NCBI GenBank assembly: GCA_018666775.1 | Contig: JABIXC010000011.1 | Location: 12,881 to 76,880, forward strand | Reading direction: 5' to 3' | From: Rhodospirillales bacterium | GTDB taxonomy: Bacteria; Pseudomonadota; Alphaproteobacteria; SMXQ01 | DNA length: 64,000 bases | Made by a program: the position numbers and the translations under genes | The notes under the pieces: model-generated | What the model was told of the DNA's origin: nothing | Database searches by the model: none | What the model saw: the letters and a program-made list of their open reading frames with translations, nothing else | In this document: piece by piece, positions 4,032 to 62,437 of the stretch | Position numbering within the stretch: position 1 is the stretch's first letter | Layout of the letters: the number at the start of each line of letters is the position of its first letter

Positions 4032-5096
4032 ATGGCCCAAAGCCTTAAAACCATTGATGCTGATGCGCATGTTGTTGAAACCCCGTTGACCTTCGAATTT
4101 ATGGAGGAATCGGAAAAAAAGTTCACGCCACTGGTAACCAACCAGGTTTCCGGCGCCCAACAACTCAGCAATGAAGGCAACGTCCGATCCGAATACTGGA
4201 TCGTTGATAACAACGTCTATGCCAAGGATCGCAATGTCGACAGCCGTTCCGCCACAGAATGGCGTGAAATGACCGACATCAAAGGCCGCGTCAATCACAT
4301 GGATGAATTGAATATTGACGTTCAAATCCTGTATCCAACGCTGTTTTTGCGCCCCTGCACCGACAATTTCGAAATCGAATTTGCGCTGTTCCGTTCCTAT
4401 AACCGTTGGCTCGCCAGCATCTGGAAACAGGCGCCCGAACGTTTGCCTTGGGTTGCCATGGCACCGCTGCATTCGCCAATCGAAAAAATCCGTGAAGAAC
4501 TGGAATGGTGCAAGGCCAATGGCGCCAAGGGCATTTTCATGCGCCCATTGGAATGTGAAAAAGAAGCGTCTGATCCATACTTCTTCCCGTTCTACGAAGT
4601 TGCCCAAGAATTAAATCTTGGCATTTGCTTCCACGCGGGCAATGGCAGCTTCAAGGTCCATGATTTCTTCTTTCCAACCAATTTCCCGATCCATAAACTA
4701 AGCATGGTTGGGGCCTTCCACGGGCTGGTCATGAATGAAATTCCCCAGCGTTTCCCTGAATTACGCTGGGCCTTCATCGAGGCATCGTCGCAATGGCTTG
4801 GCTATGCCGCCCATGATTTGGCCATCCGCCAAAAGAAAAAAGGCAAACGCCCATCCAGCAACATTCTTGCCGATAACAATATCTGGATCGCGGTTCAGGT
4901 GGATGATGATCTTGATTACATCCTTGATCGGTATGCCGATGAAAACTATCTGGTTGTGGGCACCGATTATGGCCACACCGATACGTCAGCCGAAATTGAA
5001 GCCCTGCGCATGATCCGCGACGACGGGAAAATCCCGTCATCGGTGGTCGATAAAATCCTCGGCCCTAATGCCGCCAAACTTTACGATCTGGGTTAA
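4032..5096 (+). CDS. amidohydrolase-2 family protein (PF04909, ACMSD/LigW/LigJ-like metal-dependent hydrolase/decarboxylase), paralog A
   Basis: A 354 aa ORF whose N-terminus reads IDADAHVVETPLT, with MDELNIDVQILYPTLFLR and C-terminal VGTDYGHTDTSAEI. It has a strong Shine-Dalgarno site (GAGGGAG) and is a close paralog of the ORFs at 54937 and 61385. Confidence 0.85.
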   Translation: MAQSLKTIDADAHVVETPLTFEFMEESEKKFTPLVTNQVSGAQQLSNEGNVRSEYWIVDNNVYAKDRNVDSRSATEWREMTDIKGRVNHMDELNIDVQILYPTLFLRPCTDNFEIEFALFRSYNRWLASIWKQAPERLPWVAMAPLHSPIEKIREELEWCKANGAKGIFMRPLECEKEASDPYFFPFYEVAQELNLGICFHAGNGSFKVHDFFFPTNFPIHKLSMVGAFHGLVMNEIPQRFPELRWAFIEASSQWLGYAAHDLAIRQKKKGKRPSSNILADNNIWIAVQVDDDLDYILDRYADENYLVVGTDYGHTDTSAEIEALRMIRDDGKIPSSVVDKILGPNAAKLYDLG

Positions 5097-19059: not shown

Positions 19060-19248
19060 TTATCGACCACCGCCACCGGGACGGCGGAGGGTCTTTTTCG
19101 CAGATAAGTTCATGGCGTGCTTTTGCGCCTTGCGACGATGCAAGTTGGTGCGCAAAGCCTCGCCCTGGCGCGATTTTCGTGCGGCCAGCAATGCTTCTGC
19201 ATTTTTCTTGAGATTGCTTTTCTCGTCGGGCTTTTCATCATCACTCAT
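19060..19248 (-). CDS. small basic hypothetical protein
   Basis: Lys/Arg-rich 62 aa ORF (MSDDEKPDEKSNLKKNAEALLAARKSRQ...). No recognisable family. Confidence 0.3.
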   Translation of the reverse strand: MSDDEKPDEKSNLKKNAEALLAARKSRQGEALRTNLHRRKAQKHAMNLSAKKTLRRPGGGGR

Positions 19249-19454
19249 GAAACGGAGAATACGCCGGGCACGCAGAACTGGCAACCGCAAGGGCGCAATT
19301 TTTTACCCCAATCCATGCCATTTTGAAAAACCACGGACCAGATCCGCGTTACGGCACAAATTGCGCCATATTCATGATCTATTTACCCAAATTTTCTATA
19401 CATTAACCGTATTGCGCCGCCATGATCCTTATGGCATGTTGCGCAACTTCTCGG

Positions 19455-19529
19455 GCCGCAGTAGCTCAGGGGCAGAGCACTCCCTTGGTAAGGGAGAGGC
19501 CGGCGGTTCGATTCCACCCTGCGGCACCA
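19455..19529 (+). tRNA. tRNA-Thr (anticodon GGT)
   Basis: GCCGCAG/CUGCGGC acceptor stem, anticodon loop UUGGUAA, GGUUCGAUUCC T-arm, A73 and CCA. Confidence 0.95.
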
Positions 19530-19564
19530 TTCTTTTTCTACAAATTCAAAGACATTCCGGGGCT

Positions 19565-19903
19565 TTAGCCAAGGTCGGGGAAGATGTGTGTGCCGTCCTC
19601 GTCCAAAGCCAAAGGGTCGGTTTTGGTGACGGCGGAAACGGGGAGACCGCCATAGACATGGGGGAATAAAATCCCGCCGCGGGCTTCTTCCCACTTTACC
19701 GCATCGCCCAGTGGGTCTGGATCAACGCTTAACAATATCAATCCATCCTGACCGGCACGGTGTTTTGCGGCGCTGGCAACGATGTGCTCAGCCGTTGAAA
19801 AATGGATGAAGCCGTCTGCGATATCCTGGGATGATCCGCCATACACCCCTGCTGCCTCTGCGGCCTGCCATTCTTCAGCCTTGCACATGTGATAGATGAT
19901 CAT
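19565..19903 (-). CDS. DUF952-family protein
   Basis: 112 aa, MIIYHMCKAEEWQAA... Family recalled from memory. Confidence 0.5.
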   Translation of the reverse strand: MIIYHMCKAEEWQAAEAAGVYGGSSQDIADGFIHFSTAEHIVASAAKHRAGQDGLILLSVDPDPLGDAVKWEEARGGILFPHVYGGLPVSAVTKTDPLALDEDGTHIFPDLG

Positions 19904-19987
19904 TGTTTGTAATCCTGTTTTGAAATCTTGTGGTTCATTGTCCCCATTTTGGCCCTTTCTTCAATAATCTTTCCCCGTACGTTGATC

Positions 19988-20074
19988 CACAATTTATACG
20001 CGTACAACTGTGTATAAATTTGTGCAAAATAATTATAACACTATAATATATATAGATATTATTCGTACGCGTAC
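19988..20074. promoter_or_regulatory. AT-rich intergenic island carrying an imperfect 12-bp inverted repeat (CACAATTTATAC / GTATAAATTTGTG) and repeated (T)ACGCGTAC palindromes
   Basis: Read directly in the sequence. The 220-bp spacer is about 35% GC, against about 57% for the surrounding window. Confidence 0.25.
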
Positions 20075-20123
20075 TATCATAATACACGTACAGACTCAGC
20101 CCCATTCGAGGCGTGAAACGGGG

Positions 20124-21005
20124 TTATTCCAGGCAGGCCTTGATGGCGAGGATCAGGCGGCGAAACCGTGACAGGCGCAAGCGTTGGTCAATGACATCGG
20201 GGGCAAAGCCACGATGGCGAAGTCTGGCCAACAGGTCTTCATAGACCCCGATCATCATCCGGGCCGGGCGGGATGGGGTTTTGGGGCACGCCTTCAAAAC
20301 CCGGCGTGCCGAATAGAACCGTTCATCGGCGATTTTCGCCATGTCCGCGGCCACTTTGGGAAAGTTGGGGTGGGCCAATACAGTCTTTGGGTCCCGGCTT
20401 TCAATACCATGGGCTTCCAGAAATTGTCGGGGCACGTACAGGCGACCCGCCACTGCGTCTGCGCCAAGATCGCGCAAAAAATTAGTAAACTGCAACGCTT
20501 GGCCCAAAGACAAGGCAAGGCTGCGCCCTTCGGGGCGCGGCAGGCCAAACACCGAGGCCGACAACATGCCAACGGCCCCGGCAGCCCTGCGGCAATAAAG
20601 CTCTAATTCCAAAATGCCCGGGGCGAGCATGCGTTCGGCCGCATCCATTTCCATGCCTTCAATGATGGCAAGAAAATCATCGGCATGAAGATCAAACCGT
20701 TTGATGACCGGGATCAATGCTTTTGCGGCCCCATGGCTGACGGGCTCATTTGCGAACAGGGCTCGGATTTCATTGCGCCAAAATTTTAGGCCCGCCTGTT
20801 TTTCAGGGAGCGACCCTGGCCCATCGGCAATATCATCGACAATGCGGCAAAACCCATACACCGCATAGATGCCATCACGGCGTTCGCGGGGCAAAATCCG
20901 CATGGCCCAGTAAAAAGAAGATCGGGTTGAGGCACTTTTGCCCGGTGCCACCTTCGGGGACAAGTTCGGGGATAAGTTCGGCTGAAGTTCTGTCACATCA
21001 CCCAC
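20124..21005 (-). CDS. hpnD: presqualene diphosphate synthase HpnD (squalene/phytoene synthase family)
   Basis: SSFYWAMRILPRERRDGIYAVYGFCRIVDDIADG matches the HpnD signature. The N-terminus carries an NLSPNLSP duplication. Confidence 0.8.
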   Translation of the reverse strand: MGDVTELQPNLSPNLSPKVAPGKSASTRSSFYWAMRILPRERRDGIYAVYGFCRIVDDIADGPGSLPEKQAGLKFWRNEIRALFANEPVSHGAAKALIPVIKRFDLHADDFLAIIEGMEMDAAERMLAPGILELELYCRRAAGAVGMLSASVFGLPRPEGRSLALSLGQALQFTNFLRDLGADAVAGRLYVPRQFLEAHGIESRDPKTVLAHPNFPKVAADMAKIADERFYSARRVLKACPKTPSRPARMMIGVYEDLLARLRHRGFAPDVIDQRLRLSRFRRLILAIKACLE

Positions 21006-21020
21006 CCGTGCAATCCGGGG

Positions 21021-22943
21021 TCAGGCAATGGTTGTGTTTTGATGCCCGCTTTCGCCCAGGGCGGAAAGCACCGTGGCAACGATGCTGTCTGCATCCAGCC
21101 CGGCTTTGGCGTATTGGATTTTGGGCGCATCATGATCGATAAAGCGATCGGGCAACATCATCGGGCGCACTTTCAGGCCGCTTTCGGCCAAGCCCTGATC
21201 TGCCAGAAATTTCAGGACGTGGGCTGCAAAGCCGCCAACAGCGCCTTCTTCGATGATCACCAAAACCTGATGGTTGCGCGCCAATTGGGCGACCAAATCT
21301 TCATCCAGCGGTTTGGCAAACCGGGCATCGGCCACCGTTACGGACCAGCCCTGCGCGCCCAGGTCATCGGCGGCCTTGAGACATTCCCCAAGACGCGTAC
21401 CAAAACTGAGCATGGCCACGGTATTGCCTTCGCGCAAAATACGGCCCTTGCCAATTTCCAGCGCCGTGCCGGTGGCGGGCAGTTCAACCCCAACCCCTTC
21501 GCCGCGCGGATAGCGCAGCGCGCTGGGCCGGTCATCAATGGCCGCAGCAGTGGCAACCATATGAACCAGTTCCGCTTCATCCGAAGGGGCCATCAACACA
21601 AAGCCCGGCAAACAGCCAAGATAGGCAATATCAAAGGCCCCGGCATGGGTTGCCCCATCGGCCCCAACCAGCCCGGCCCGGTCCAGCACAAAGCGCACAG
21701 GCAGGCCCTGAATGGCAACATCGTGCACGATCTGGTCGTAGCCCCGCTGCAGGAACGTTGAATAAATGGCACAAAATGGCTTCAGCCCTTCTGTGGCAAG
21801 CCCTGCGGCAAAGGTCACCGCATGTTGTTCGGCGATGCCCACATCGAATGTCCGTTCAGGATATTGTTCTGCAAACACATCCAACCCGGTGCCCGATGGC
21901 ATGGCGGCAGTAATGGCGACAATTTTTTCATCGCGCGTGGCTTCTTCCACCAGCGCATTGGCAAACACTTTGGTATAGACCGGGGCGTTGGTTTTTGCTT
22001 TCACCTGTTTGCCGGTGACCACATCAAACCGGCTAACGCCGTGATGTTTGTCAGGGGCTTCTTCTGCCGGGCCATAGCCGTGGCCTTTTTTGGTCACCAC
22101 ATGGAGCAAGACCGGGCCTGTTTCTTTTGAATCGCGGATGTTTTTCAGCACCGGCAAAAGATGATCCAGATTATGGCCATCGATCGGGCCGATATAGAAA
22201 AAGCCAAGCTCTTCGAACAAAGTGCCACCGGTCACCATGCCACGGGCGTATTCTTCTGCCCGTTGGGCGGCCTGTTTAATGGGCCGGGGGAATTTATCTG
22301 CCATCACCTTGCCGAAGTGGCGAAGGGAGCGATAGGATTTCGATGAAATCAGCCGCGATAAATACGCGCTCATGGCACCAACGGGTGGGGCAATGGACAT
22401 ATCGTTGTCGTTCAAAATGACGATCAGGCGCGAATCCATAAAGCCCGCATTGTTCATGGCTTCATAGGCCATGCCGGCACTCATGGCGCCATCGCCGATC
22501 ACACAAATCACTTCGTTGTCGCCACCGGCCAGATCGCGCGCAACGGCCATGCCCAGCCCGGCGGAAATTGATGTAGAACTATGCGCCGTACCAAAGGGGT
22601 CGTATTTGCTTTCAGACCGTTTGGTAAACCCGGACAGGCCGCCGCCTTGGCGCAAGGTGCGGATGCGCTCACGGCGTTCGGTCAATATCTTGTGGGGATA
22701 GCTCTGATGGCCAACATCCCAGATTAGGCGATCATCGGGGGTGGAAAAAACGTAATGAAGGGCCACGGTCAATTCCACAACCCCAAGCCCGGCCCCCAAA
22801 TGGCCGCCGGTGATGGAAACCGCATCAATGGTTTCGATGCGCAATTCATCAGCGACCTGGCGCAGGTCACTTTCTGCCAATTCGCGCAAATCGGCGGGCG
22901 ATGCGATGGTATCCAGCAATGGTGTGGTGTTGGTTTCAGTCAT
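21021..22943 (-). CDS. dxs: 1-deoxy-D-xylulose-5-phosphate synthase
   Basis: A 640 aa protein with a TPP-binding [18 protein letters not shown] motif and [10 protein letters not shown]. Confidence 0.95.
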
Positions 22944-23050
22944 GGTCCACGGAGTATCAAAAAAGCCAAAGAAAACCTAGGAAAAAGACCATAGCAGATT
23001 TTGGCCATCCCCCCGGCACATAACACGAAACCTGCTGATTTTTAAAGGTT

Positions 23051-23839
23051 TTATTGAATTTTACGGCAATTTGCGATCAAACCCCAAAGCCCGCCAAACA
23101 CAACCGCCAGCCCAAACCCAATGCGCGACAGGGCCACCCTTTGGGAAAGGGGGTCTTTGCGCATAAGCATCCAGACAAGCCCACGGCCGACGGCCACAAA
23201 AACGCCGGCCTCCATCGCAAGACGCCGCCCCTTCACAACACGGGGCAAAACCATGGCATCATCAAGCAAGGCCTCTACGTCTATCAAAACGCGATCAAAA
23301 ACCTTTTTGAGCCCGGGCGTTGACCGATCTTCTCCAAGGGCCGCCACAGAAACGCATTCGTCCGAAAACCAGGGTTCCGGGATATAGACGCGATCCAGCG
23401 TTTTATAATCATCCCCGCAATCTTGAAGATGATTGAGAATTTGCAAGGCCGCGCACAACGCATCGACCGCGTGTTTGGCACGCCAATCGCGTTCACCATA
23501 AAGATCGAGAAAGAAATGCCCGACCGGGGCTGCAGAAAGCGCGCAATAAGCCAGCAATTCATCCCAGTTTGAATAACGATTTTTATAAACGTCCTGAACA
23601 AAGGCCTTGATCAGGTCACCGCCAAAAATTTGGCGCTCCGGGCTTAAGCTCGCGCGCAGGGCATCAAGGCGCGCAAGTTTTTCTTCCTTCTTTAAGCTGG
23701 GGTCATCGGCGATATCATCGCCGGTGCGGGCAAAGGTGTAAAAATTACGGATGGCGTCACGGGCCCAAACCGGGGTCAAAAACGAAGCTACGGGAAAGTT
23801 TTCTTCCCCTGCCTGTTTGCTGGGAAATGCCCTATCCAT
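23051..23839 (-). CDS. hpnC: hydroxysqualene synthase HpnC (squalene/phytoene synthase family)
   Basis: ENFPVASFLTPVWARDAIRNFYTFARTGDDIADD matches the HpnC signature. Confidence 0.75.
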   Translation of the reverse strand: MDRAFPSKQAGEENFPVASFLTPVWARDAIRNFYTFARTGDDIADDPSLKKEEKLARLDALRASLSPERQIFGGDLIKAFVQDVYKNRYSNWDELLAYCALSAAPVGHFFLDLYGERDWRAKHAVDALCAALQILNHLQDCGDDYKTLDRVYIPEPWFSDECVSVAALGEDRSTPGLKKVFDRVLIDVEALLDDAMVLPRVVKGRRLAMEAGVFVAVGRGLVWMLMRKDPLSQRVALSRIGFGLAVVFGGLWGLIANCRKIQ

Positions 23840-23849
23840 TTTTAATCCG

Positions 23850-24851
23850 TTATTGATCCACCATAATCACCGTGCGCCCGCGCACCCGGCCGCCGATGAT
23901 TTCATCAGCAAGTCCCAAAACATCCGATAGTGGAACCACCGTCCGCATGGCAGCAAATTGATCAGAGGTAAGCGTCGATGCAATCCTGGCCCAGGCTTCT
24001 TTACGTTCTTCAATGGGGCCATACCCCCCATCGATGCCCACCACCCGGGTGCCACGCAATAAAAACGGCAGCAATGAAATTTCAGACTGGTTGGATGCCG
24101 CCAATCCACAAGATGCAATGACGCCGCGTTTGTGCAGCGATGACAACACAGTTGAAAAAGTGCCCCCACCGACAGAATCAATACACCCCGCCCAACGCCG
24201 GACCATCAAGGGCCGCTCGGGCCCATTTTCCAGCTCAGACCTAGAAATAACCGATGCCGCACCCAAAGACTTTAGGTAATCGGCCTCTTCCATGCGGCCC
24301 GTCGATGCTTCGACCCGGTAGCCAAGTGCCGATAGGATGGTAATGGAAACAGACCCAACCCCACCGGCCGCACCGGTGACCAGAATATCGCCAGATTTGG
24401 GGCTTACCCCTTCATGCTCCATAAACATAACCGACAACATGGCTGTTAAACCTGCGGTGCCAATGGTCATGGTGTCCTGGGTTGTCATGCCATCGGGCAC
24501 AGCCACCAGGCAATCACCGCGCGTGCGCACATGGGATGCGAACCCCCCGGACGTGCTCTCTCCCGTGCCATACCCGTTCAACACAACCTTATCGCCAGCT
24601 TTAAAATCGGCGTGATCGGAATCTTCCACCACGCCCGCAACATCAATGCCCGGAATAAAGGGGAATTCTTTCAGGTTATAACCCAGACCCTTCAGCATCA
24701 TGGCGTCTTTGTAATTGAGCGACGAACATTCAACCCGGATCAACACATCGCCATCGGCCAGAACGGAGCCCGGAATATCACCCAGTTTGCAAACCGGCGG
24801 CGTGCCACCAGATTCCAGATAAAGCGCGCGAATGGTTTCAGGTGTTTTCAT
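23850..24851 (-). CDS. MDR-family NADPH-dependent oxidoreductase (YhdH/AcuI-like putative quinone or acrylyl-CoA reductase)
   Basis: A 333 aa protein with a GAAGGVGS cofactor motif and zinc-free MDR architecture. Its start overlaps the pyrC stop (ATGA). Confidence 0.8.
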   Translation of the reverse strand: MKTPETIRALYLESGGTPPVCKLGDIPGSVLADGDVLIRVECSSLNYKDAMMLKGLGYNLKEFPFIPGIDVAGVVEDSDHADFKAGDKVVLNGYGTGESTSGGFASHVRTRGDCLVAVPDGMTTQDTMTIGTAGLTAMLSVMFMEHEGVSPKSGDILVTGAAGGVGSVSITILSALGYRVEASTGRMEEADYLKSLGAASVISRSELENGPERPLMVRRWAGCIDSVGGGTFSTVLSSLHKRGVIASCGLAASNQSEISLLPFLLRGTRVVGIDGGYGPIEERKEAWARIASTLTSDQFAAMRTVVPLSDVLGLADEIIGGRVRGRTVIMVDQ

Positions 24852-25921
24852 AACACGGGTCCTTTGTTTGTCGGCCCAATGCCCACCACCCGCCAGCCAA
24901 GGGTTTCCCCTGCCATAAAGGGTCGCACGGCATCTTCGCCCGAAACATCAACCTGTTCGGGCACTGTAAAATCAGCCCGTTCCAAAATCAGGGATTCTTC
25001 ATTCACAGGAAGGCCATAAAATTCCGCACCAAAATGGGATGCAAAATTTTCCAGCCGGGCCAAATGCCCTTCTTCTTCAAAAACGGTTGCGTAAATTTCC
25101 ATGGCGATGGGCGCGTTAAAAATTCCGGCACAGCCACACGCGCTTTCCTTTGCCCCAATGCCATGGGGGGCTGAATCGGTGCCCAAAAAGAATTTTGGAT
25201 TGCCCGAAACGGCAGCTGCACGCAGGGCCAACCGGTGGCTTTCACGCTTGGCCACGGGCAGACAATAAAGATGGGGCCGAATACCGCCTTTAAACATATC
25301 GCTGCGGTTAATCACCAAATGATGGGGCGTCACGGTCGCGGCCAGCGTTTCGGGGCCATCGGTCACAAAATCCACCGCGTCTTTGGTGGTGATGTGTTCA
25401 AACACGATGCGAAGTTTTGGGAAATCTTTCATCACCCCGGCCAGGACGCGTTCAATAAAGACCGCTTCACGGTCAAACACATCGACATCCCCGTCCACCA
25501 CTTCGCCGTGGACCAGCAATGGCATATCAATCTTTTCCATCCGGGCCAGAACGCCAGCGATTTTGGCAACATCGGTTACCCCGTGTTCGGCACCGGTTGT
25601 GGCATTGGCGGGATACAGCTTTGCCGCAATGACCACGCCGCCCTTATAGGCCTTTTCCAGATCATCGGCGTTGGTGTCATCGGTCAGGTACAGCGCCATC
25701 ATCGGCGTAAACCGCGCGCCGCCAAAGCCAGCCTTTTTGATCCGGTTGCGATAGGCGGCGGCATCTTTGGCGGTAACCACCGGATTTTTGAGGTTTGGCA
25801 TGACCATCGCGCGGGCGAAAACCCGGGCGGTTTCAATCGTCACCGCGCCCAGCATGGCACCGTCGCGCAAATGCACGTGCCAATCATCAGGCCTGCGAAT
25901 GATCAATTGTTCGCCCATCAT
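24848..25921 (-). CDS. pyrC: dihydroorotase (homodimeric type II)
   Basis: RRPDDWHVHLRDG... and later FLGTDSAPH. Confidence 0.85.
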   Translation of the reverse strand: MMGEQLIIRRPDDWHVHLRDGAMLGAVTIETARVFARAMVMPNLKNPVVTAKDAAAYRNRIKKAGFGGARFTPMMALYLTDDTNADDLEKAYKGGVVIAAKLYPANATTGAEHGVTDVAKIAGVLARMEKIDMPLLVHGEVVDGDVDVFDREAVFIERVLAGVMKDFPKLRIVFEHITTKDAVDFVTDGPETLAATVTPHHLVINRSDMFKGGIRPHLYCLPVAKRESHRLALRAAAVSGNPKFFLGTDSAPHGIGAKESACGCAGIFNAPIAMEIYATVFEEEGHLARLENFASHFGAEFYGLPVNEESLILERADFTVPEQVDVSGEDAVRPFMAGETLGWRVVGIGPTNKGPVL

Positions 25922-25991: not shown

Positions 25992-27026
25992 TCATGAAAG
26001 GATATCGTTGTAAAAAGCCAAATACCGGGCCGCCACCGCCCCTTCGGTAAAGGTTTCATCGAATTCCTTGCGCGCATTGGTGACAAGGGATGCGCACAGG
26101 GCATCATCATCCATCAATTGGTCCATGGCAGCTGAGAGTGCCTCTGCATCATCCATGGGCACCATAAGGCCATTTTCGCCGTTTTTGATCAAGCCGAGCG
26201 GCCCTTTGGCATCGGCCGTGATCAACGGGGTATTCTGGACCCAGGCCTCAATCATCACCGTGCCAAACGGCTCATACCGCGATGGCATGACACAGTAATC
26301 AACGGCGGCAAACAAGGCTGCGCGATCATCGCGCCAACCCAGGATGCTTACCCGGTCCCCCACATCAGCGCTTTCAATCTGGCGGATCAATTCGTCTCTC
26401 AGTTCCCCCTCCCCGGCGATCCAGACATGGGCGCGCGGGGAAAGCGTTGCCGCTTCAATTAAAATATCAAAGGCCTTTTTGGTATGCAGTCGGCCCAGGG
26501 CCAGAAACAACGGCGCATCCGGCGGCGTCCCGAATGCCGCACGGTCAACGGGTGGGGCACTTTCCAAATGGGCAAAGGTTGGGATGTAATGGGCGTGGGA
26601 AACATCTCTGCCGCCAGCAATTTGATGATCGCGAATATCCGGGGTCACCCCAACCAGATGATCACAGTGTGTGTAATTGCTGACTTTGTAATAGCCGCCG
26701 AACCAGCCAACATGAACAAAGGCCGCATTGTTTGGCCGGGACACGAAACGGGTGGAACGGTTCATCCAGCTTTGCACCACATCGGGGGCGAAATCATCAA
26801 TGATGGTCGCCAGTTTTCCCTTGGTCGTGAAATCAAGCAAGCCACCGAACGCAAGTTCTGCCACATCCAGCCCGGCGTCTCGCAACTGGGCAGCCCGGGC
26901 CGCGTTTTTACGGATGACCACTTTTTGTTCAAGGCCGACCCGATGCAGGGCGATCACCATATCGACAAAATAGGTTTCCGCCCCGCCATGTTCGGCACCG
27001 GCCATAATTTGCAGCACCCGCATCAC
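25992..27026 (-). CDS. glycosyltransferase family 4 (GT-B, group 1)
   Basis: MRVLQIMAGAEHGGAETYFVDMV and a C-terminal EPFGTVMIEAW motif. Confidence 0.8.
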   Translation of the reverse strand: MMRVLQIMAGAEHGGAETYFVDMVIALHRVGLEQKVVIRKNAARAAQLRDAGLDVAELAFGGLLDFTTKGKLATIIDDFAPDVVQSWMNRSTRFVSRPNNAAFVHVGWFGGYYKVSNYTHCDHLVGVTPDIRDHQIAGGRDVSHAHYIPTFAHLESAPPVDRAAFGTPPDAPLFLALGRLHTKKAFDILIEAATLSPRAHVWIAGEGELRDELIRQIESADVGDRVSILGWRDDRAALFAAVDYCVMPSRYEPFGTVMIEAWVQNTPLITADAKGPLGLIKNGENGLMVPMDDAEALSAAMDQLMDDDALCASLVTNARKEFDETFTEGAVAARYLAFYNDILS

Positions 27027-27985
27027 GCAGCGCCTTTCGTTTTTTCAAGCAATTCAAGGGCGGCGCGCTCAACCGCATCAACGCCAAGACCGCCCATCAA
27101 GGACCCGGTATTTTTGACATCTAAATCGGGGGCAAACAATTCTTCAAATGATTGGGGTGTGCGAACCACCGCACAATGGGGGCCAAAGGGCGCATACAGA
27201 TCATCGCGCGTTGGCCCAAAAAGACCAAGGGTCGGCGTTTGGGCCGCCGCTGCCATATGCATCAACCCGGAATCATTGCCAACATATAACGCTGCCCTTG
27301 CCATGCAGGCATAGGCAGACAAAAGCGACACGCCATCAAATACCTCAATCACATCGCTGCCTTGATCCTTGATGTCCTTTATCAAGGGCGCTGCGGTTTC
27401 CCGCTCCCCCGGTGCGCCCAGCACCATGACACGGGCACCGGCCAGCGGTGCATTTGGTGCGGTTAAGCGACGGGTGAGGTCGATAAAGTTTTCAATGGCC
27501 CATTCCTTGCCCCGCCAATTGGCTGTGGGGCCAAGGGCCAGCACCGGGGTGCCATCAGGCACCAGTTGCTTTGCTTCTTCTTCGTGGGACGGTAAGGGCC
27601 ATAATTTGGGTGCAGCGACATCATCCAACCCTAAAAATTTTGAAAGCTGGATTACTCTGGCCACAGGCGCGCGGTTGGTGTGATAGGCATAGCGTTTGCC
27701 CCGCATTAAAATCAGGGTTGCCAAAGACCCCCGCAAATCAACCACCACATCCCAATATTGGGTGATGGTTTCCCCGATAAAATCCAGCCAATGGCCGTTA
27801 AAGCGCTTCTTTTTAAGGGCAATCACCCGTTCCAACCCCGGAACGCCTTCAAACAAGGGTGCCGCCACCGGCCCACAGGCAACGGTGATCGCAGCGCCCG
27901 GATGCATCGCAATCAGGCGGTTTAAAAGCCCCGTAGACAATATCGCATCGCCTATCCGGGTCGAGGTGACAAACAAAATTCGCAT
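27023..27985 (-). CDS. glycosyltransferase family 9 (LPS heptosyltransferase-like)
   Basis: MRILFVTSTRIGDAIL and later GNDSGLMHMAAA, both GT9 signatures. Confidence 0.8.
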   Translation of the reverse strand: MRILFVTSTRIGDAILSTGLLNRLIAMHPGAAITVACGPVAAPLFEGVPGLERVIALKKKRFNGHWLDFIGETITQYWDVVVDLRGSLATLILMRGKRYAYHTNRAPVARVIQLSKFLGLDDVAAPKLWPLPSHEEEAKQLVPDGTPVLALGPTANWRGKEWAIENFIDLTRRLTAPNAPLAGARVMVLGAPGERETAAPLIKDIKDQGSDVIEVFDGVSLLSAYACMARAALYVGNDSGLMHMAAAAQTPTLGLFGPTRDDLYAPFGPHCAVVRTPQSFEELFAPDLDVKNTGSLMGGLGVDAVERAALELLEKTKGAA

Positions 27986-33259: not shown

Positions 33260-33448
33260 CACGTGGCCTCTCCGCCAATAAACCCACAAATTTGCCCCCC
33301 CTCAAAACACCGCCACAAGACTTGCGGTCCTAGGGGGGTGCTTCTATGCTCCGCCACTCCATGCGCCCCGTCAAGGCTGCATCGGATTCAGCAACGCTCC
33401 CCTACTGTCCCAAACAGGGCAGGTCTTGTTAATTTAAGTGAGGTTCTC

Positions 33449-34471
33449 TTGGCCATCGTCGTCAATCTGGATGAAAAACGTGGAAAACCCGTACAGCCAT
33501 CGCTGGATGGATTGCATCAGCTTGTGGCCGATGATCTTGGCCGCGTCAATGAAGCCGTTCTGAAAAACATGGAAAGCTCCGTGGCGCTAATTCCGCAACT
33601 GGCCGGACACATCATTGCCGCCGGGGGAAAACGAATCCGGCCCATGCTGTTGCTGGGGACTGCCAAACTGTGTGGCTATGAAGGCACCCGCCAAGTGGGA
33701 TTGGCAGCGGCGGTAGAATTCATCCATACCGCAACCTTGCTTCACGATGATGTGGTTGACGAGTCTGATCTCCGCCGGGGCAAAAGCACCGCCAATGCGC
33801 TTTGGGGCAACAAATCAAGCGTCCTGGTTGGCGATTTTCTGTTTTCGCGGTCTTTCCGCCTCATGGTCGCCGATGGATCTTTAGAGGTTCTTTCTATTCT
33901 TTCCAACGCCGCCGCGGTCATCGCCGAGGGTGAGGTCATGCAGTTGACCACCGCAAATGATACCGCCACGTCCGAAGATGATTATCTGGAAGTCATCACC
34001 GCCAAGACGGCCACCCTGTTTGCAGCCGCCACCCAATTGGGTGCCGTTGTCGCTGGCCGGCCAAAGGTCGAACAGGCAACGCTGGAAGCGTTCGGACGCA
34101 ACCTTGGCATCGCCTTTCAGTTGACCGACGACGTTTTGGATTATGTGGCCGCATCAGAAGATATGGGCAAAGACCCGGGTGATGATTTCCGCGAAGGGAA
34201 AGTAACCCTGCCCGTGGTTCTGGCCTTCAGGCGTGGCGATGAAACCGAACAGGCCTTTTGGCGGCGAACGCTGGAAGATCTGGAACAAGATGATGCCGAT
34301 TTTGACCATGCCAGAGCATTAATGGAACGCCATGACGTGTTGACCGACTGTCAGGAACGGGCGCGGCACTACACACAAATCGCAAAAGACTCCCTTGATC
34401 CATTCCCTGATGGCGAGATCAAGGATGCGCTTTTAGAAGTGGTCGCCTTCTCCGCAGCGCGCAGCCACTAA
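33449..34471 (+). CDS. ispB: polyprenyl diphosphate synthase (octaprenyl-diphosphate synthase-like)
   Basis: GGKRIRPMLLL, FARM motif LLHDDVVDESDLRRG and SARM motif DDVLDY. The longest ORF starts at 33263 but overlaps the opposite-strand DUF2007 gene, so a start at TTG 33449 (340 aa) was preferred and remains uncertain. Confidence 0.8.
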   Translation: MAIVVNLDEKRGKPVQPSLDGLHQLVADDLGRVNEAVLKNMESSVALIPQLAGHIIAAGGKRIRPMLLLGTAKLCGYEGTRQVGLAAAVEFIHTATLLHDDVVDESDLRRGKSTANALWGNKSSVLVGDFLFSRSFRLMVADGSLEVLSILSNAAAVIAEGEVMQLTTANDTATSEDDYLEVITAKTATLFAAATQLGAVVAGRPKVEQATLEAFGRNLGIAFQLTDDVLDYVAASEDMGKDPGDDFREGKVTLPVVLAFRRGDETEQAFWRRTLEDLEQDDADFDHARALMERHDVLTDCQERARHYTQIAKDSLDPFPDGEIKDALLEVVAFSAARSH

Positions 34472-34489: not shown

Positions 34490-35560
34490 TTAAATCACCA
34501 GCTTATACAGATCGATGACATTCTGGCTTAAGACCCGTTTCTGGGCTTCGGGTGAAAGTTCGCCGCACTGGCGTCCCACAAAAGCTCTGGAATTGGGCCA
34601 GGTCATATTGGGGTGGGGATAGTCGCTGGACCACATGCAGTTTTTATCACCCCAGAATTTGAGGGTTTGTCCACCCACGTAATCATCCATAAACGTGGCA
34701 TGAACATGATCCATAAAGATTTCGCTGGGCAATCTGGAAATCAAAAAATCTTCATTGGAATGGCCGGGCTTTGTATTGCGAAGATAATAATAATCCCACT
34801 GCTGCAAAATAAAGGGGATCCAGCCAATTTCGCCTTCGACGATTTCCACCGTCAGTTTGGGGTGACGTTCAAACACGCCAGACCAGATCAAATCGAACAC
34901 CGTGGTCACCACCTCTGAGGTTTTGATGTTGACGGAACCGCGCACTTTTTCCATGCCCGCGCGTTTTTCACGGAAATAATTAAACCCGGTCAGAATGTGG
35001 AAATTAAGCGGATAATCCATTTCAGCCGCAGCCGCCCAAAGCTTTTCATAATGGGGCGAGGTCAGCGGCAATTTCGGATCCGGCACCTGCCAGACCAGCG
35101 CACCCTTAAGGCCCATATCATTGCAGCGATGCATTTCCTTGATCGCGCCATCGATGTCGTAAACCGAAATGCAAGGAATGGCGAACAGGCGCTTCGGAGA
35201 CGTATTACAAAAATCAGCGATCCAGTCGTTGTAAACCCGAAAGGCTGCTTCTTGCACATCAGGCTCGGATGCAAACAGGCCGAGGGTAAAGGTTGGATAC
35301 AGCACCTCTGCGGCAACGCCATCAATATCCATGTCGGTGATCCGGACGGCAGGGTCGCTGCCCCCCTTTGGCCGGGTATCGGGCTGAACCTTTGGGCGGG
35401 TCATCCGGTCAAGAATGCTTGGTGGCAATTCATTGAACATATCGGCCGGTTCATCCACATGGCCATCTGCGGAAACAAGAAAGCTCGGGACCTTTTCGCC
35501 CGCCGCTTTCATCTCCGGATCAACATAGCGCGCAGACATTTCATCGATTGTCATGGACAT
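34490..35560 (-). CDS. amidohydrolase-2 family protein (PF04909), divergent paralog B
   Basis: SADGHVDEP N-terminal metal-ligand motif and a C-terminal SSDYPHP motif. Confidence 0.8.
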   Translation of the reverse strand: MSMTIDEMSARYVDPEMKAAGEKVPSFLVSADGHVDEPADMFNELPPSILDRMTRPKVQPDTRPKGGSDPAVRITDMDIDGVAAEVLYPTFTLGLFASEPDVQEAAFRVYNDWIADFCNTSPKRLFAIPCISVYDIDGAIKEMHRCNDMGLKGALVWQVPDPKLPLTSPHYEKLWAAAAEMDYPLNFHILTGFNYFREKRAGMEKVRGSVNIKTSEVVTTVFDLIWSGVFERHPKLTVEIVEGEIGWIPFILQQWDYYYLRNTKPGHSNEDFLISRLPSEIFMDHVHATFMDDYVGGQTLKFWGDKNCMWSSDYPHPNMTWPNSRAFVGRQCGELSPEAQKRVLSQNVIDLYKLVI

Positions 35561-54936: not shown

Positions 54937-55989
54937 CTAGATGCCGTAGAGCGCTTTGGCATTGGCGTTGAGAATTTTCTCTGCCACCTCTGCCGACACT
55001 TTGCCGTCATCTTTCAATTTGCGCAGAGCTTCGATCTCAGCCGAGGTATCGGCATGGCCGTAATCCGTGCCGACCACCAATTGGCCATCGCCTGCGTATT
55101 TCAGCACATATTCCAGATCATCTGTCACCTGACAGGCGACAAACATGTTGTTATCGGCCATGGCGGTATCAGACAGTCTTTTGCCTTTGCGCTTGAACCG
55201 GATCGCAAGATCATTCAGCGCATAGGGAATCCACTGTGAACTAACCTCAACAAAGCCCCAGCGCAATTTCGGGAACATCCCAGGCACACCCTTCATCAAC
55301 AAGGAATGGAAGGCGCTGACCACGGGCAATTTTGAACGTCCAAAGCCTGCTTCGGATGCGTAGATATCGCGCACACCGAATGAATTGTTTCCGGAATGGA
55401 AACAAATCGGCATATCCAGTTCTTGGGCCTTTTCGTACATCGGATAAAAATAAGGATCATCCAGACGGCGTTCGCATTCAAGACCACGGATAAAGATTCC
55501 GACGGCGCCATTTTCCTTGCCAAATTCCAGTTCTTCCATGGTTTTATCCATGGACATAAGCGGTGGCATCACGACCCATTTAAGGCGGTCCGGTGCCTTG
55601 CTCCAGATATCTGCCAACCACCGATTATATGATTTGCAAATGGCCGCCTCGGCCAACGCGTTCTGGGTCCAGGCCCGCAAAAAAACCGTGGGATAAAGAA
55701 CCTGAACATCAATGTTGAGCTCGTCCATGTGATCGAGGCGAATTTTAACATCAACCATCTCGCGGGAATCTTTGGTCGTGTTATGGCCGACATTGCCTTC
55801 TTTTGGCTGGATGCGGCCATCAATGGCCCAAAATTCCTTTTGAATGTGTTTGCCTTCGTTATCCAGTTGGCCCGCATCTTCATTCTTGTGAAGGATCACC
55901 TGTGGCTTCAGGTGTTCATATTCTGGGTCCATATAATCAAAGGTTCTTTCACACTCGACAACATGAGCATCGGAATCGATCGCTCCCAT
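54937..55989 (-). CDS. amidohydrolase-2 family protein (PF04909), paralog C
   Basis: IDSDAHVVE, MDELNIDVQVLYPTVFLR and VGTDYGHADTSAEI. About 50% identical to paralogs A and D. Confidence 0.85.
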   Translation of the reverse strand: MGAIDSDAHVVECERTFDYMDPEYEHLKPQVILHKNEDAGQLDNEGKHIQKEFWAIDGRIQPKEGNVGHNTTKDSREMVDVKIRLDHMDELNIDVQVLYPTVFLRAWTQNALAEAAICKSYNRWLADIWSKAPDRLKWVVMPPLMSMDKTMEELEFGKENGAVGIFIRGLECERRLDDPYFYPMYEKAQELDMPICFHSGNNSFGVRDIYASEAGFGRSKLPVVSAFHSLLMKGVPGMFPKLRWGFVEVSSQWIPYALNDLAIRFKRKGKRLSDTAMADNNMFVACQVTDDLEYVLKYAGDGQLVVGTDYGHADTSAEIEALRKLKDDGKVSAEVAEKILNANAKALYGI

Positions 55990-61384: not shown

Positions 61385-62437
61385 ATGGGCTGCGTAGATG
61401 CAGACGCACACGTTATTGAATCGCCATTGACCTGGGATTTCATAGCCGAAGAAGACAAAGCACACACCCCCTTGATGGTCGTCCAGACAGAAGGGCGTGA
61501 GGTCAAGAGCAACGAAGGCGGGACGTCCAAGGAATACTGGCTGATGGACAACCGTTTCCACGCCAAAGACAAGAACGTTGGCTCTGATACATCAATCGAA
61601 TCCCGCGAACTCAGCGATATCGGCGCACGCATTGCGCATATGGATGAATTGGGCATTGATATTCAGGTCTTATATCCCACGCTATTTCTGCGTCCCGCTG
61701 TTCGCACGGCCGCCGCTGAATTGGCCGTGACCAAAGGCTATAACCGCTGGCTTGCCAGCATTTGGAAACATGCCCCAAAGCGTCTACCCTGGGTCGCCAT
61801 GCCACCCTTGATGTCACCCGATAAAATTCGCGACGAATTGACGTGGGCCAAAGACAATGGGGCCTGCGGCGTTTTCATGCGCGGCCTTGAATGCGACCGC
61901 ACCGTGGCGGATCCCTTTTTCTTTCCGCTGTATGAAGCGGCCAGTGAACTGGATTTAGCCATCTGTTTTCATTCGGGAAACAATTCCATTATCCACCATG
62001 ATTTTTTCCTGGAAGACACCACCTTCACCAAATTCAAACTGGCCGTGGTGGGGGCATTTCATTCCCTTTTGGAAAAAGACATCCCCGGAAAATTCCCCGA
62101 CCTGCGTTGGGGCTTTGTTGAAATCAGCGCCCAGTGGGTGCCCTATGTCTGTCATGATCTGCGCTATCGTTTCATGCGCCTTGGCCGTCGTATGCCCGAA
62201 AATCTTTTGGAAGCAAACAAAATTTTTGTCGCCTGCGAAGTGACCGATGACATTCCCTATATCCTGAAATATGCAGGCGATGATCAATTGATGGTCGGCA
62301 CCGATTATGGACATCACGACCCATCGGCAGAAATCAACGCCTTCACCATTATGCGCAACCGCGAAGATGTGGCGCCCGATGTAATGACCAAAATTCTGGA
62401 AACCAATGCACGGACGCTTTACGGGCTTGACGGATAA
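61385..62437 (+). CDS. amidohydrolase-2 family protein (PF04909), paralog D
   Basis: VDADAHVIESPLT, MDELGIDIQVLYPTLFLR and VGTDYGHHDPSAEI. Confidence 0.85.
   Translation: MGCVDADAHVIESPLTWDFIAEEDKAHTPLMVVQTEGREVKSNEGGTSKEYWLMDNRFHAKDKNVGSDTSIESRELSDIGARIAHMDELGIDIQVLYPTLFLRPAVRTAAAELAVTKGYNRWLASIWKHAPKRLPWVAMPPLMSPDKIRDELTWAKDNGACGVFMRGLECDRTVADPFFFPLYEAASELDLAICFHSGNNSIIHHDFFLEDTTFTKFKLAVVGAFHSLLEKDIPGKFPDLRWGFVEISAQWVPYVCHDLRYRFMRLGRRMPENLLEANKIFVACEVTDDIPYILKYAGDDQLMVGTDYGHHDPSAEINAFTIMRNREDVAPDVMTKILETNARTLYGLDG

Follow-up and report, generated by a model that had tools for sequence, protein, structure and literature searches.

In the work of Pan et al. (2015), as summarised in PMC7306690, squalene is formed in Zymomonas mobilis and Rhodopseudomonas palustris by the three enzymes of the HpnCDE pathway, of which HpnE is cited there as an FAD enzyme with an amine-oxidase fold. 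Gene loss has been made responsible for the irregular distribution of hpnCDE (PMC7306690). Several phyla have retained hpnD but usually lost hpnC and hpnE, one squalene producer possessing hpnD only, and in Verrucomicrobia and Ca. Poseidoniia ‘only hpnD and sqs remain’ (PMC9907078). Genes for isoprenoid precursors can also be part of such loci, as in the hopanoid cluster of Rhodomicrobium, which includes ispH (PMC4263297). The marine and terrestrial alphaproteobacterial clade to which the present locus belongs is not discussed in PMC7306690 or PMC9907078.

The locus lies in a 64 kb stretch of DNA, referred to as the window, from a marine alphaproteobacterium belonging to a clade of uncultured Alphaproteobacteria (the window clade). 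Reading of the sequence and its open reading frames gave, in order on the minus strand, pyrC, a YhdH/AcuI-type MDR reductase gene, hpnC, dxs and hpnD, embedded among housekeeping genes (GT9-GT4-pyrC-MDR ... dcd-murA-hisGD). Family profile scores agreed with the identities given to these five genes in a preliminary description of this DNA. pyrC (24848-25921) encodes a type II (homodimeric) dihydroorotase (TIGR00856, 438.6 bits against a cutoff of 293), and is followed by the gene of a zinc-free NADPH oxidoreductase of the YhdH/AcuI family (23850-24851; TIGR02823, 370 bits, cutoff 297), by an hpnC-like gene for a predicted hydroxysqualene synthase (PSPP to HSQ; 23051-23839; TIGR03464, 219.1 bits, cutoff 250.45), by dxs (21021-22943; TIGR00204, 813.5 bits, cutoff 466) and by an hpnD-like gene for a predicted presqualene diphosphate synthase (20124-21005; TIGR03465, 278.0 bits, 0.6 below the cutoff of 278.6). 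The pyrC stop and the MDR start share 4 bp (ATGA), the MDR gene is 10 bp from hpnC, and the gap between dxs and hpnD measures 15 bp if hpnD begins at its GTG and 24 bp if the NCBI-annotated start is taken; the overlap and the gaps of 10 and 15 bp had been described before and were read again from the sequence. Between hpnC and dxs lies a 107-bp spacer (22944-23050, minus strand), in which neither a sigma-70 consensus nor an Rfam match was found and which could possibly hold a promoter or leader for the dxs-hpnD unit. Beyond hpnD, an AT-rich spacer (19904-20123), shown by sequence reading and repeat analysis to contain TACGCGTA palindromes, separates the locus from a DUF952 gene (19565-19903, minus strand) and, further on, a tRNA-Thr gene (19455-19529, plus strand).

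The dxs gene between the two synthase genes is full-length as proposed, residues 12-629 of its product matching TIGR00204 model positions 3-615 and all three transketolase-like domains (PF13292, PF02779 and PF02780) being found. Like their counterparts in the HpnCDE pathway, the two flanking products are head-to-head prenyl synthases of the HpnC and HpnD families with both Asp-rich motifs and the N-terminal signatures, and the signatures reported earlier, here read as ENFPV in HpnC and SSFYWAMR in HpnD, do fall in invariant alignment columns. In HpnC, which has the PF00494 (SQS_PSY) fold (136 bits), the motifs ENFPV, DDIAD, AAPVG and QDCGDDY..LDRVYIP are all intact in the alignment, and E13-N-F-P-V17, D41-D-I-A-D45 and D140-C-G-D-D144 occupy invariant columns. 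In HpnD the first Asp-rich motif (D57-D-I-A-D61) is intact, and the second (D179-L-G-A-D183) retains its outer Asp and has the conserved Glu replaced by Ala (E182A). The window nevertheless differs from the described pathway in that hpnE is missing in cis, dxs splits hpnC and hpnD, HpnC scores below and HpnD at the NCBIfam equivalog cutoff, and hpnC is fast-evolving in the clade.

No member of the Amino_oxidase or SQHop_cyclase families was present among the called genes at contig positions 9821-85817 (76 kb, including the whole window), nor did these 76 kb contain sqs, hpnG/H genes or a squalene-hopene cyclase gene (PF13243/PF13249), the last two of which are present in the sister-clade loci described below. 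When four HpnE queries and one SHC query were run against the window with tblastn, nothing emerged at E<=1 beyond noise, and no hpnE remnant was detected in the spacer at 19904-20123, the place where the sister clade has hpnE-shc. Family calls and tblastn thus confirmed the reported absence of an amine-oxidase-like gene and a squalene-hopene cyclase from the 64 kb.

Related loci and the divergence of hpnC

Related loci were drawn from genomes and metagenomes, most of them being metagenome contigs whose completeness is not established. The window clade is adjoined by a sister clade with hopanoid-type clusters in the HpnD and Dxs NJ trees, which are rough and built from tblastn segments (the HpnC tree being poorly resolved). 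The gene order is hpnC-dxs-hpnD-hpnE-shc in L075, the same sandwich of hpnC, dxs and hpnD as in the window, and dxs-hpnD-hpnE-shc in L046, L055, L090, L091 and L098; the sister-clade HpnE reached 368 bits with TIGR03467 and the SHC Pfam match an E of 1e-142. In all six of these clusters dxs lies directly upstream of hpnD as in the window, but hpnE and shc follow hpnD, whereas the window clade stops at hpnD. The dxs-hpnD linkage is therefore inherited from a hopanoid-type cluster. Another hopanoid cluster with MEP-pathway genes is that of Streptomyces coelicolor, which includes dxs/ispG.

Throughout the window clade (at least eight lineages) dxs-hpnD was always retained, the pair being present in the window, L015, L027, L030, L107/108, L109 and L110. 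No HpnE or SHC gene was encountered downstream of it within 3.8-10 kb in these relatives (76 kb for the window), the downstream view being short in L028 (855 bp only) and in L029 and L031, which end at or soon after hpnD. The physical coupling of dxs to the pathway, asserted in the preliminary description, was borne out by this adjacency in every clade member and in the sister clade. Dxs of the window shares 78-82% identity with its orthologues in the clade and 66-76% with the sister-clade proteins. Clade members tentatively have in common a semi-conserved TTG..AAA-rich stretch, located 70-110 bp upstream of their dxs.

The syntenic HpnD orthologues of the clade scored 290-309 bits with TIGR03465 and that of L075 332 bits. 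Three of 49 conserved columns are substituted in the window HpnD, E182A among them, and the HpnD/Dxs divergence ratio, computed like the other rate ratios from p-distances, is 1.7-2.5 in the window clade vs 1.85-2.7 in the hpnE-shc-bearing sister clade. hpnD is thus maintained under normal constraint, and dxs-hpnD is the conserved core of the locus, probably a unit retained by selection.

HpnC presents a different picture. Its 219.1 bits are spread over two stretches, and the cutoff is missed largely because the window HpnC is a short form in which ∼22-27 aa following the first Asp-rich motif are missing, a natural deletion which is also carried by short-form HpnCs of complete hpnCDE operons that likewise remain below the cutoff (L007, 215 bits; L010, 240 bits). 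Clade orthologues reached 195-236 bits, and L075, at 264, exceeded the cutoff. Eight of 55 columns conserved to >=95% are substituted in the window HpnC (reference mean 0.5, maximum 5) and 21 of 55 in that of L015, while clade members have HpnC/HpnD divergence ratios of 1.13-1.55, the reference median being 0.97 (95th percentile 1.16). In L029 hpnC has been cleanly deleted, and it is absent in L107/108. Fast evolution throughout the clade together with deletion in at least two lineages suggests that the constraint on hpnC is relaxed or altered. The nearest relatives of the window HpnC (∼50% identity) are located in canonical hpnC-hpnD-hpnE operons, and of its eight unusual substitutions, three (A84V, R108H and A218G) also occur in the short form of L007; as these are shared with a complete operon and the motifs are kept, the window HpnC may still be fully functional.

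Routes to squalene

The locus is probably a trimmed remnant of a dxs-containing (hpnC)-dxs-hpnD-hpnE-shc cluster, in which an eroding HpnCDE module has kept its dxs-hpnD core. hpnE and shc would have gone from the locus in the window clade, hpnE by loss rather than by relocation, and selection would act on the dxs-hpnD pair. HpnD is predicted to convert FPP to presqualene diphosphate and HpnC to convert the latter to hydroxysqualene, both synthases having their catalytic motifs intact, and co-expression of dxs in a putative operon with them would feed the MEP pathway. As a dedicated reductase gene is missing in cis, squalene production would hinge on an unlinked hpnE or sqs.

A complete three-step pathway whose genes are dispersed, with hpnE and possibly also shc or genes of the crtN type elsewhere in the genome, squalene made normally and only the gene order rearranged, is possible, and we entertain it tentatively. 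It would agree with the intact motifs of both synthases and the normal constraint on HpnD; moreover, no hpnC was found within 2.6-6.7 kb in the sister-clade hopanoid loci L046, L090 and L091, so that hpn genes can be unlinked, and our view covers 76 kb of the genome. As a counterpoint to erosion, other contigs of the MAG may carry hpnE, shc or sqs. However, hpnE directly follows hpnD on its 3′ side in 55 of 64 metagenome loci, and in most phyla hpnCDE is reported to be transcribed as a unit (PMC7306690). The acceleration of hpnC across the clade and its deletion in two lineages would be unexpected in an intact pathway, and this clade-wide erosion speaks for abandonment of the three-step route and not merely for its dispersal.

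A special case of the remnant reading is that an unlinked one-enzyme sqs makes squalene, with hpnE gone, hpnC decaying and hpnD retained. The clade loses its genes in the order known from the hpnD-plus-sqs pattern of PMC9907078, hpnE being absent and hpnC in decay while hpnD persists, but the 76 kb inspected hold no sqs, and we regard this replacement as unlikely.

The MDR reductase and pyrC

In the preliminary description it was proposed that either hpnE lies elsewhere or the MDR reductase performs the last reduction; the observation behind this proposal was correct and its interpretation is supported in part. In the profile search the MDR protein passed the TIGR02823 (YhdH subfamily) cutoff, while its 367 bits with the AcuI equivalog stayed under the cutoff of 440. 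Its closest solved structures, matched over the full length at E ∼1e-80, are 3NX4, 5GXE/5GXF (AcuI) and 1O89 (E. coli YhdH), and it is 45-49% identical to crystallised acrylyl-CoA reductases. SSLNYKD and PGIDVAG stand at the positions of the Cys/His ligands in zinc ADHs and the structural-zinc Cys cluster is absent, in accordance with the earlier reading of the enzyme as zinc-free. It is thus like the YhdH/AcuI acrylyl-CoA reductases in its full-length match, zinc-free MDR fold and AAGGVG NADPH motif, and unlike them in missing the AcuI equivalog cutoff and in being paired with pyrC. Judged from its sequence, it is an ordinary YhdH/AcuI-family enoyl-thioester reductase. Enzymes of this family add hydride to an activated enoyl-thioester. 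Dehydroxylation of hydroxysqualene, in which an unactivated allylic alcohol is reductively dehydroxylated, does not fit this chemistry.

In every relative showing both genes the MDR gene overlaps the pyrC stop or adjoins it directly, the pairing being kept in L015, L016, L027, L030, L107 and L109. MDR homologues in 10 other genomes had no equivalent adjoining pyrC (in L018 only a weak amidohydrolase match of 25% identity), and those outside the clade had no hpn neighbours; the pyrC-MDR pairing is peculiar to the window clade. In all clade members showing it, each of them lacking hpnE in cis, the MDR gene lies within ∼0.9-2.3 kb upstream of hpnC, or of dxs where hpnC is lost, but GT9, GT4 and pyrC are equally conserved in this block and the proximity is therefore accounted for by synteny. 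A Sel1-repeat gene, usually accompanied by an opposite-strand aldo-keto reductase (AKR) gene, stands between MDR and hpnC in the relatives (L015, L027, L030, L107 and L109), and the 10-bp MDR-hpnC junction is thus a window-specific deletion product; deletion of the Sel1 and AKR genes would have brought MDR next to hpnC. Since pyrC-MDR also persists in L107/L108, where hpnC is lost, we judge that MDR belongs with pyrC and outside the squalene module. Compared with HpnE, the enzyme has an NADPH-dependent MDR fold, not an FAD amine-oxidase fold, and no conserved co-occurrence with hpnC/hpnD. Despite its same-strand position just upstream of hpnC, it is thus highly improbable that a co-transcribed MDR reductase replaces HpnE in the NADPH reduction of hydroxysqualene to squalene.

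HpnD in isolation

The window clade resembles the sets in which HpnD occurs in isolation (Verrucomicrobia, Ca. Poseidoniia and Rubritalea squalenifaciens; PMC7306690, PMC9907078) in that hpnE has apparently disappeared, hpnC is on its way out and hpnD is retained under constraint. The window differs from them in representing an intermediate state, with hpnC still present and the retained hpnD fixed beside dxs. It is a rather doubtful proposition that the clade truly lacks HpnE, SHC and any Sqs, and yet keeps the dxs-hpnD operon under normal purifying selection, HpnD having a physiological role of its own.

The window locus is a further example bearing on the function of HpnD alone. If HpnE, SHC and Sqs are truly lost, HpnD, together with the diverging HpnC where present, might produce C30 lipids that derive from presqualene or are of the hydroxysqualene type, or HpnD might form squalene without a partner enzyme, which is suspected to happen in Rubritalea squalenifaciens. 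If this is true, the clade, with hpnC present, diverged or deleted, would be a natural series for working out ‘HpnD in isolation’.

Organization of the hpnC-dxs-hpnD locus

The stretch was annotated on the 115-kb record JABJJK010000015.1 (positions 9821-85817, 76 kb) of the marine MAG GCA_018660925.1, window coordinates being obtained by subtracting 13380 from those of the record. The same locus is present in five other assemblies and, as these contigs show 99.94-100% identity, dN/dS analysis of strain variants is without power. On the minus strand, eight genes are arranged head to tail, starting with a GT9 heptosyltransferase gene (27023-27985) and continuing with a GT4 glycosyltransferase gene (25992-27026), pyrC (24848-25921), the gene of a medium-chain (MDR) oxidoreductase (23850-24851), the hpnC homologue (23051-23839), dxs (21021-22943), the hpnD homologue (20124-21005) and, beyond a 220-bp AT-rich spacer, a DUF952 gene (19565-19903). 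The spacings reported in the preliminary description were all correct, namely a 4 bp pyrC/MDR overlap and gaps of 10 bp between MDR and hpnC and 15 bp between dxs and hpnD; the gap between hpnC and dxs is 107 bp. Its protein assignments were also borne out, in that the HpnC and HpnD homologues carry their family signatures with both Asp-rich motifs and the MDR lacks every zinc ligand. Likewise, neither the window nor the annotated 76 kb of its contig holds a gene encoding an amine-oxidase-fold protein (HpnE) or a squalene-hopene cyclase (SHC), and tblastn with the HpnE and SHC proteins of related loci as queries gave no match.

Promoter and terminator scans revealed nothing exceeding the shuffled expectation and nothing within the hpnC-dxs spacer, and a tRNA was the sole Rfam match. 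A tRNA-Thr(GGT) gene is located at 19455-19529, just past the DUF952 gene. The arrangement xseB-ispA-dxs is a common one, from which the dxs of the window differs, as no FPP synthase gene (ispA) accompanies it in the window. The sole polyprenyl synthase gene in view (33263-34471) is IspB-like, its best NCBIfam match being octaprenyl diphosphate synthase (315 bits, cutoff 412). Elsewhere in the window, four scattered paralogues of Amidohydro_2 (PF04909) were found at 4032-5096, 34490-35560, 54937-55989 and 61385-62437. CoA-transferase, thiolase-like and ChsH2-type OB-fold genes next to one such group, at about 56.1-58.9 kb, suggest a module for aromatic or steroid-like side-chain degradation.

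Related loci with and without hpnE and shc

HpnC has its nearest homologues, at no more than about 50% identity, in canonical overlapping hpnC-hpnD-hpnE operons. Related loci (L-numbers) were gathered by an MDR search of the genome collection (best match 57% identical), an HpnD-alignment search of metagenomes and context look-ups of HpnD homologues, and were annotated by tblastn and Pfam/NCBIfam. Neighbour-joining trees of HpnD and Dxs showed two related groups. In the sister clade, the gene order is hpnC-dxs-hpnD-hpnE-shc in L075 and dxs-hpnD-hpnE-shc in L046, L055, L090, L091 and L098. Thus, dxs beside hpnD is a feature of a hopanoid-type cluster, as is even the placement of dxs between hpnC and hpnD. 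No hpnC was found in L046, L090 and L091 over 2.6-4.5 kb on the upstream side and as much as 6.7 kb on the downstream side; even in these apparent hopanoid clusters, hpnC is either absent or unlinked.

The window clade comprises the window, L015, L027, L030, L107/108, L109 and L110 together with the fragments L028, L029 and L031, whose Dxs and HpnD are 78-82% and 53-64% identical, respectively, to those of the window. Its layout is GT9-(GT4)-pyrC-MDR-Sel1-(AKR, opposite strand)-hpnC-dxs-hpnD, with a Sel1-repeat gene and an aldo-keto reductase (AKR) gene before hpnC. Neither HpnE nor SHC was detected in any member within the 3.8-10 kb visible downstream, in contrast to the metagenome loci with sufficient flank, where hpnE lies immediately 3' of hpnD in 55 of 64. 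Two candidate ORFs were rejected. One, in L015, is a short amine-oxidase-fold ORF located 2.5 kb downstream of hpnD; it is renalase/COG3380-like, reached 36.6 bits with the HpnE model against a cutoff of 283 and is paired with an SDR gene that follows it immediately (19077-20839). A 702-aa ORF immediately 3' of hpnD in L027, considered as SHC, is really a fused TctA/TctB transporter.

In the window, the AT-rich spacer of ∼220 bp past hpnD (19904-20123) contains TACGCGTA palindromes and the direct repeats ATTTATACGCGTAC and ATTCGTACGCGTAC, 69 bp apart. As sister-clade loci hold hpnE-shc at this very position, the spacer may mark a past rearrangement or bind a protein. Furthermore, a semi-conserved TTG...(A)nGGCAAA-like stretch 70-110 bp 5' of the dxs start, at ∼22980-23090 in the window, where it reaches into the 3' end of hpnC, and at equivalent positions in L015, L029, L030, L109 and L110, may represent a candidate dxs-hpnD promoter.

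Five metagenome loci (L032, L037, L064, L093 and L105) carry SHC directly after the HpnD homologue, and no HpnC or HpnE matches were found in their flanks (up to 10 kb on each side in L093 and L105). Such loci bear on whether HpnD acts alone.

Loss of hpnC and constraint on hpnD

DNA alignment of L029 with L015 revealed that hpnC had been cleanly excised between the AKR gene and the dxs leader, and L107/L108 are organized as pyrC-MDR-Sel1-dxs-hpnD, hpnC being absent. The remaining HpnCs of the clade leave conserved columns far more often than any reference: of the 55 columns with 95% or greater conservation among 49 reference HpnCs, 8 are substituted in the window, 21 in L015, 5 in L027 and 7 in L030, compared with a mean of 0.5 and a maximum of 5 in the references. 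The HpnC/HpnD divergence ratio is 1.13-1.55 in the clade, the reference median being 0.97 and the 95th percentile 1.16. HpnD, on the other hand, shows 0-4 substitutions per 49 conserved columns, and its divergence relative to Dxs (1.7-2.5) is the same as that of the full-pathway sister clade (1.85-2.7). Considering the deletions, substitutions and rates of hpnC against this normal HpnD, the conserved unit is dxs-hpnD, and hpnC is dispensable within the window clade.

The window HpnC nevertheless keeps all recognized motifs. A 22-27 aa deletion accounts in part for its NCBIfam score of 219 (cutoff 250). The short-form HpnCs of complete hpnCDE operons have this deletion too, and as these likewise miss the cutoff, the low score was ruled out as a sign of non-function. 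The window hpnC may possibly be a foreign replacement: it has this deletion and three substitutions in common with the marine short-form HpnCs, but the neighbour-joining tree lacks resolution. Two marine hpnC-hpnD-hpnE operons, L007 (10001-12647) and L010 (10001-12644), encode unusually short proteins (HpnC 254-257 aa, HpnD 261-267 aa and HpnE 361-363 aa), follow an MFS transporter gene and lack shc over 10 kb. The HpnC scores of both fall below the NCBIfam HpnC cutoff, and such genes are thus likely under-annotated.

Fate of the pathway and role of the MDR

Judging from family membership and intact motifs, HpnD would join two FPP molecules into presqualene diphosphate, from which HpnC probably still makes hydroxysqualene. 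Dxs would feed the MEP pathway, dxs being presumably transcribed with hpnD, possibly from a promoter of their own in or near the 107-bp spacer, and the final reduction has no local gene. We consider it rather probable that the locus is an eroding module with a retained dxs-hpnD core, including the sub-case of replacement by sqs. Loss of hpnC and hpnE with retention of hpnD, at times alongside sqs, is a published pattern (PMC9907078) which agrees with the losses across the window clade; one squalene producer with hpnD only is described in the same study, and irregular hpnCDE sets have been put down to gene loss (PMC7306690). A pathway that is complete but dispersed is a less likely explanation; if hpnE were merely elsewhere, the locus would be an ordinary rearranged pathway.

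The MDR, described as co-transcribed, had been proposed as a possible substitute for HpnE. It belongs to the YhdH/AcuI family (TIGR02823, 370 bits; nearest structures 3NX4, AcuI 5GXE/5GXF and YhdH 1O89), whose members catalyse the NADPH reduction of activated enoyl-thioesters, whereas HpnE is an FAD enzyme of the amine-oxidase fold that strips an allylic hydroxyl (PMC7306690). In every relative showing both genes, the MDR start either overlaps the pyrC stop or immediately adjoins it, and between MDR and hpnC the relatives have one or two genes, of which one is often on the opposite strand. The 10-bp MDR-hpnC junction of the window is therefore a derived state, Sel1 and AKR having been lost; the window has an AKR homologue 40 kb away. 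Furthermore, MDR is still present in L107/108, where hpnC is gone, and neither pyrC nor hpn genes adjoin the homologues of this MDR in ten other genomes, save a weak amidohydrolase match in L018. With its coupling to pyrC, its separation from hpnC in relatives, its retention without hpnC and its different family chemistry, the MDR is most improbable as HpnE, and adjacency of this kind may be a deletion artefact, not necessarily a functional link.

Precedents exist for incomplete hpnCDE sets, for HpnD in isolation and for MEP-pathway genes within hopanoid clusters; the dxs-anchored arrangement lacking hpnE and the graded decay of hpnC across the clade are new. Caution is needed where a marine MAG is credited with the capacity for squalene or hopanoids on the strength of hpnC and hpnD matches alone. 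The role of HpnD without its partners has been posed as unexplained in the evolution of carotenoids and hopanoids (PMC9907078). If hpnE is truly absent, the eroding module would make the window clade a graded natural experiment, in which hpnC is intact, diverged or deleted and dxs-hpnD is always kept.
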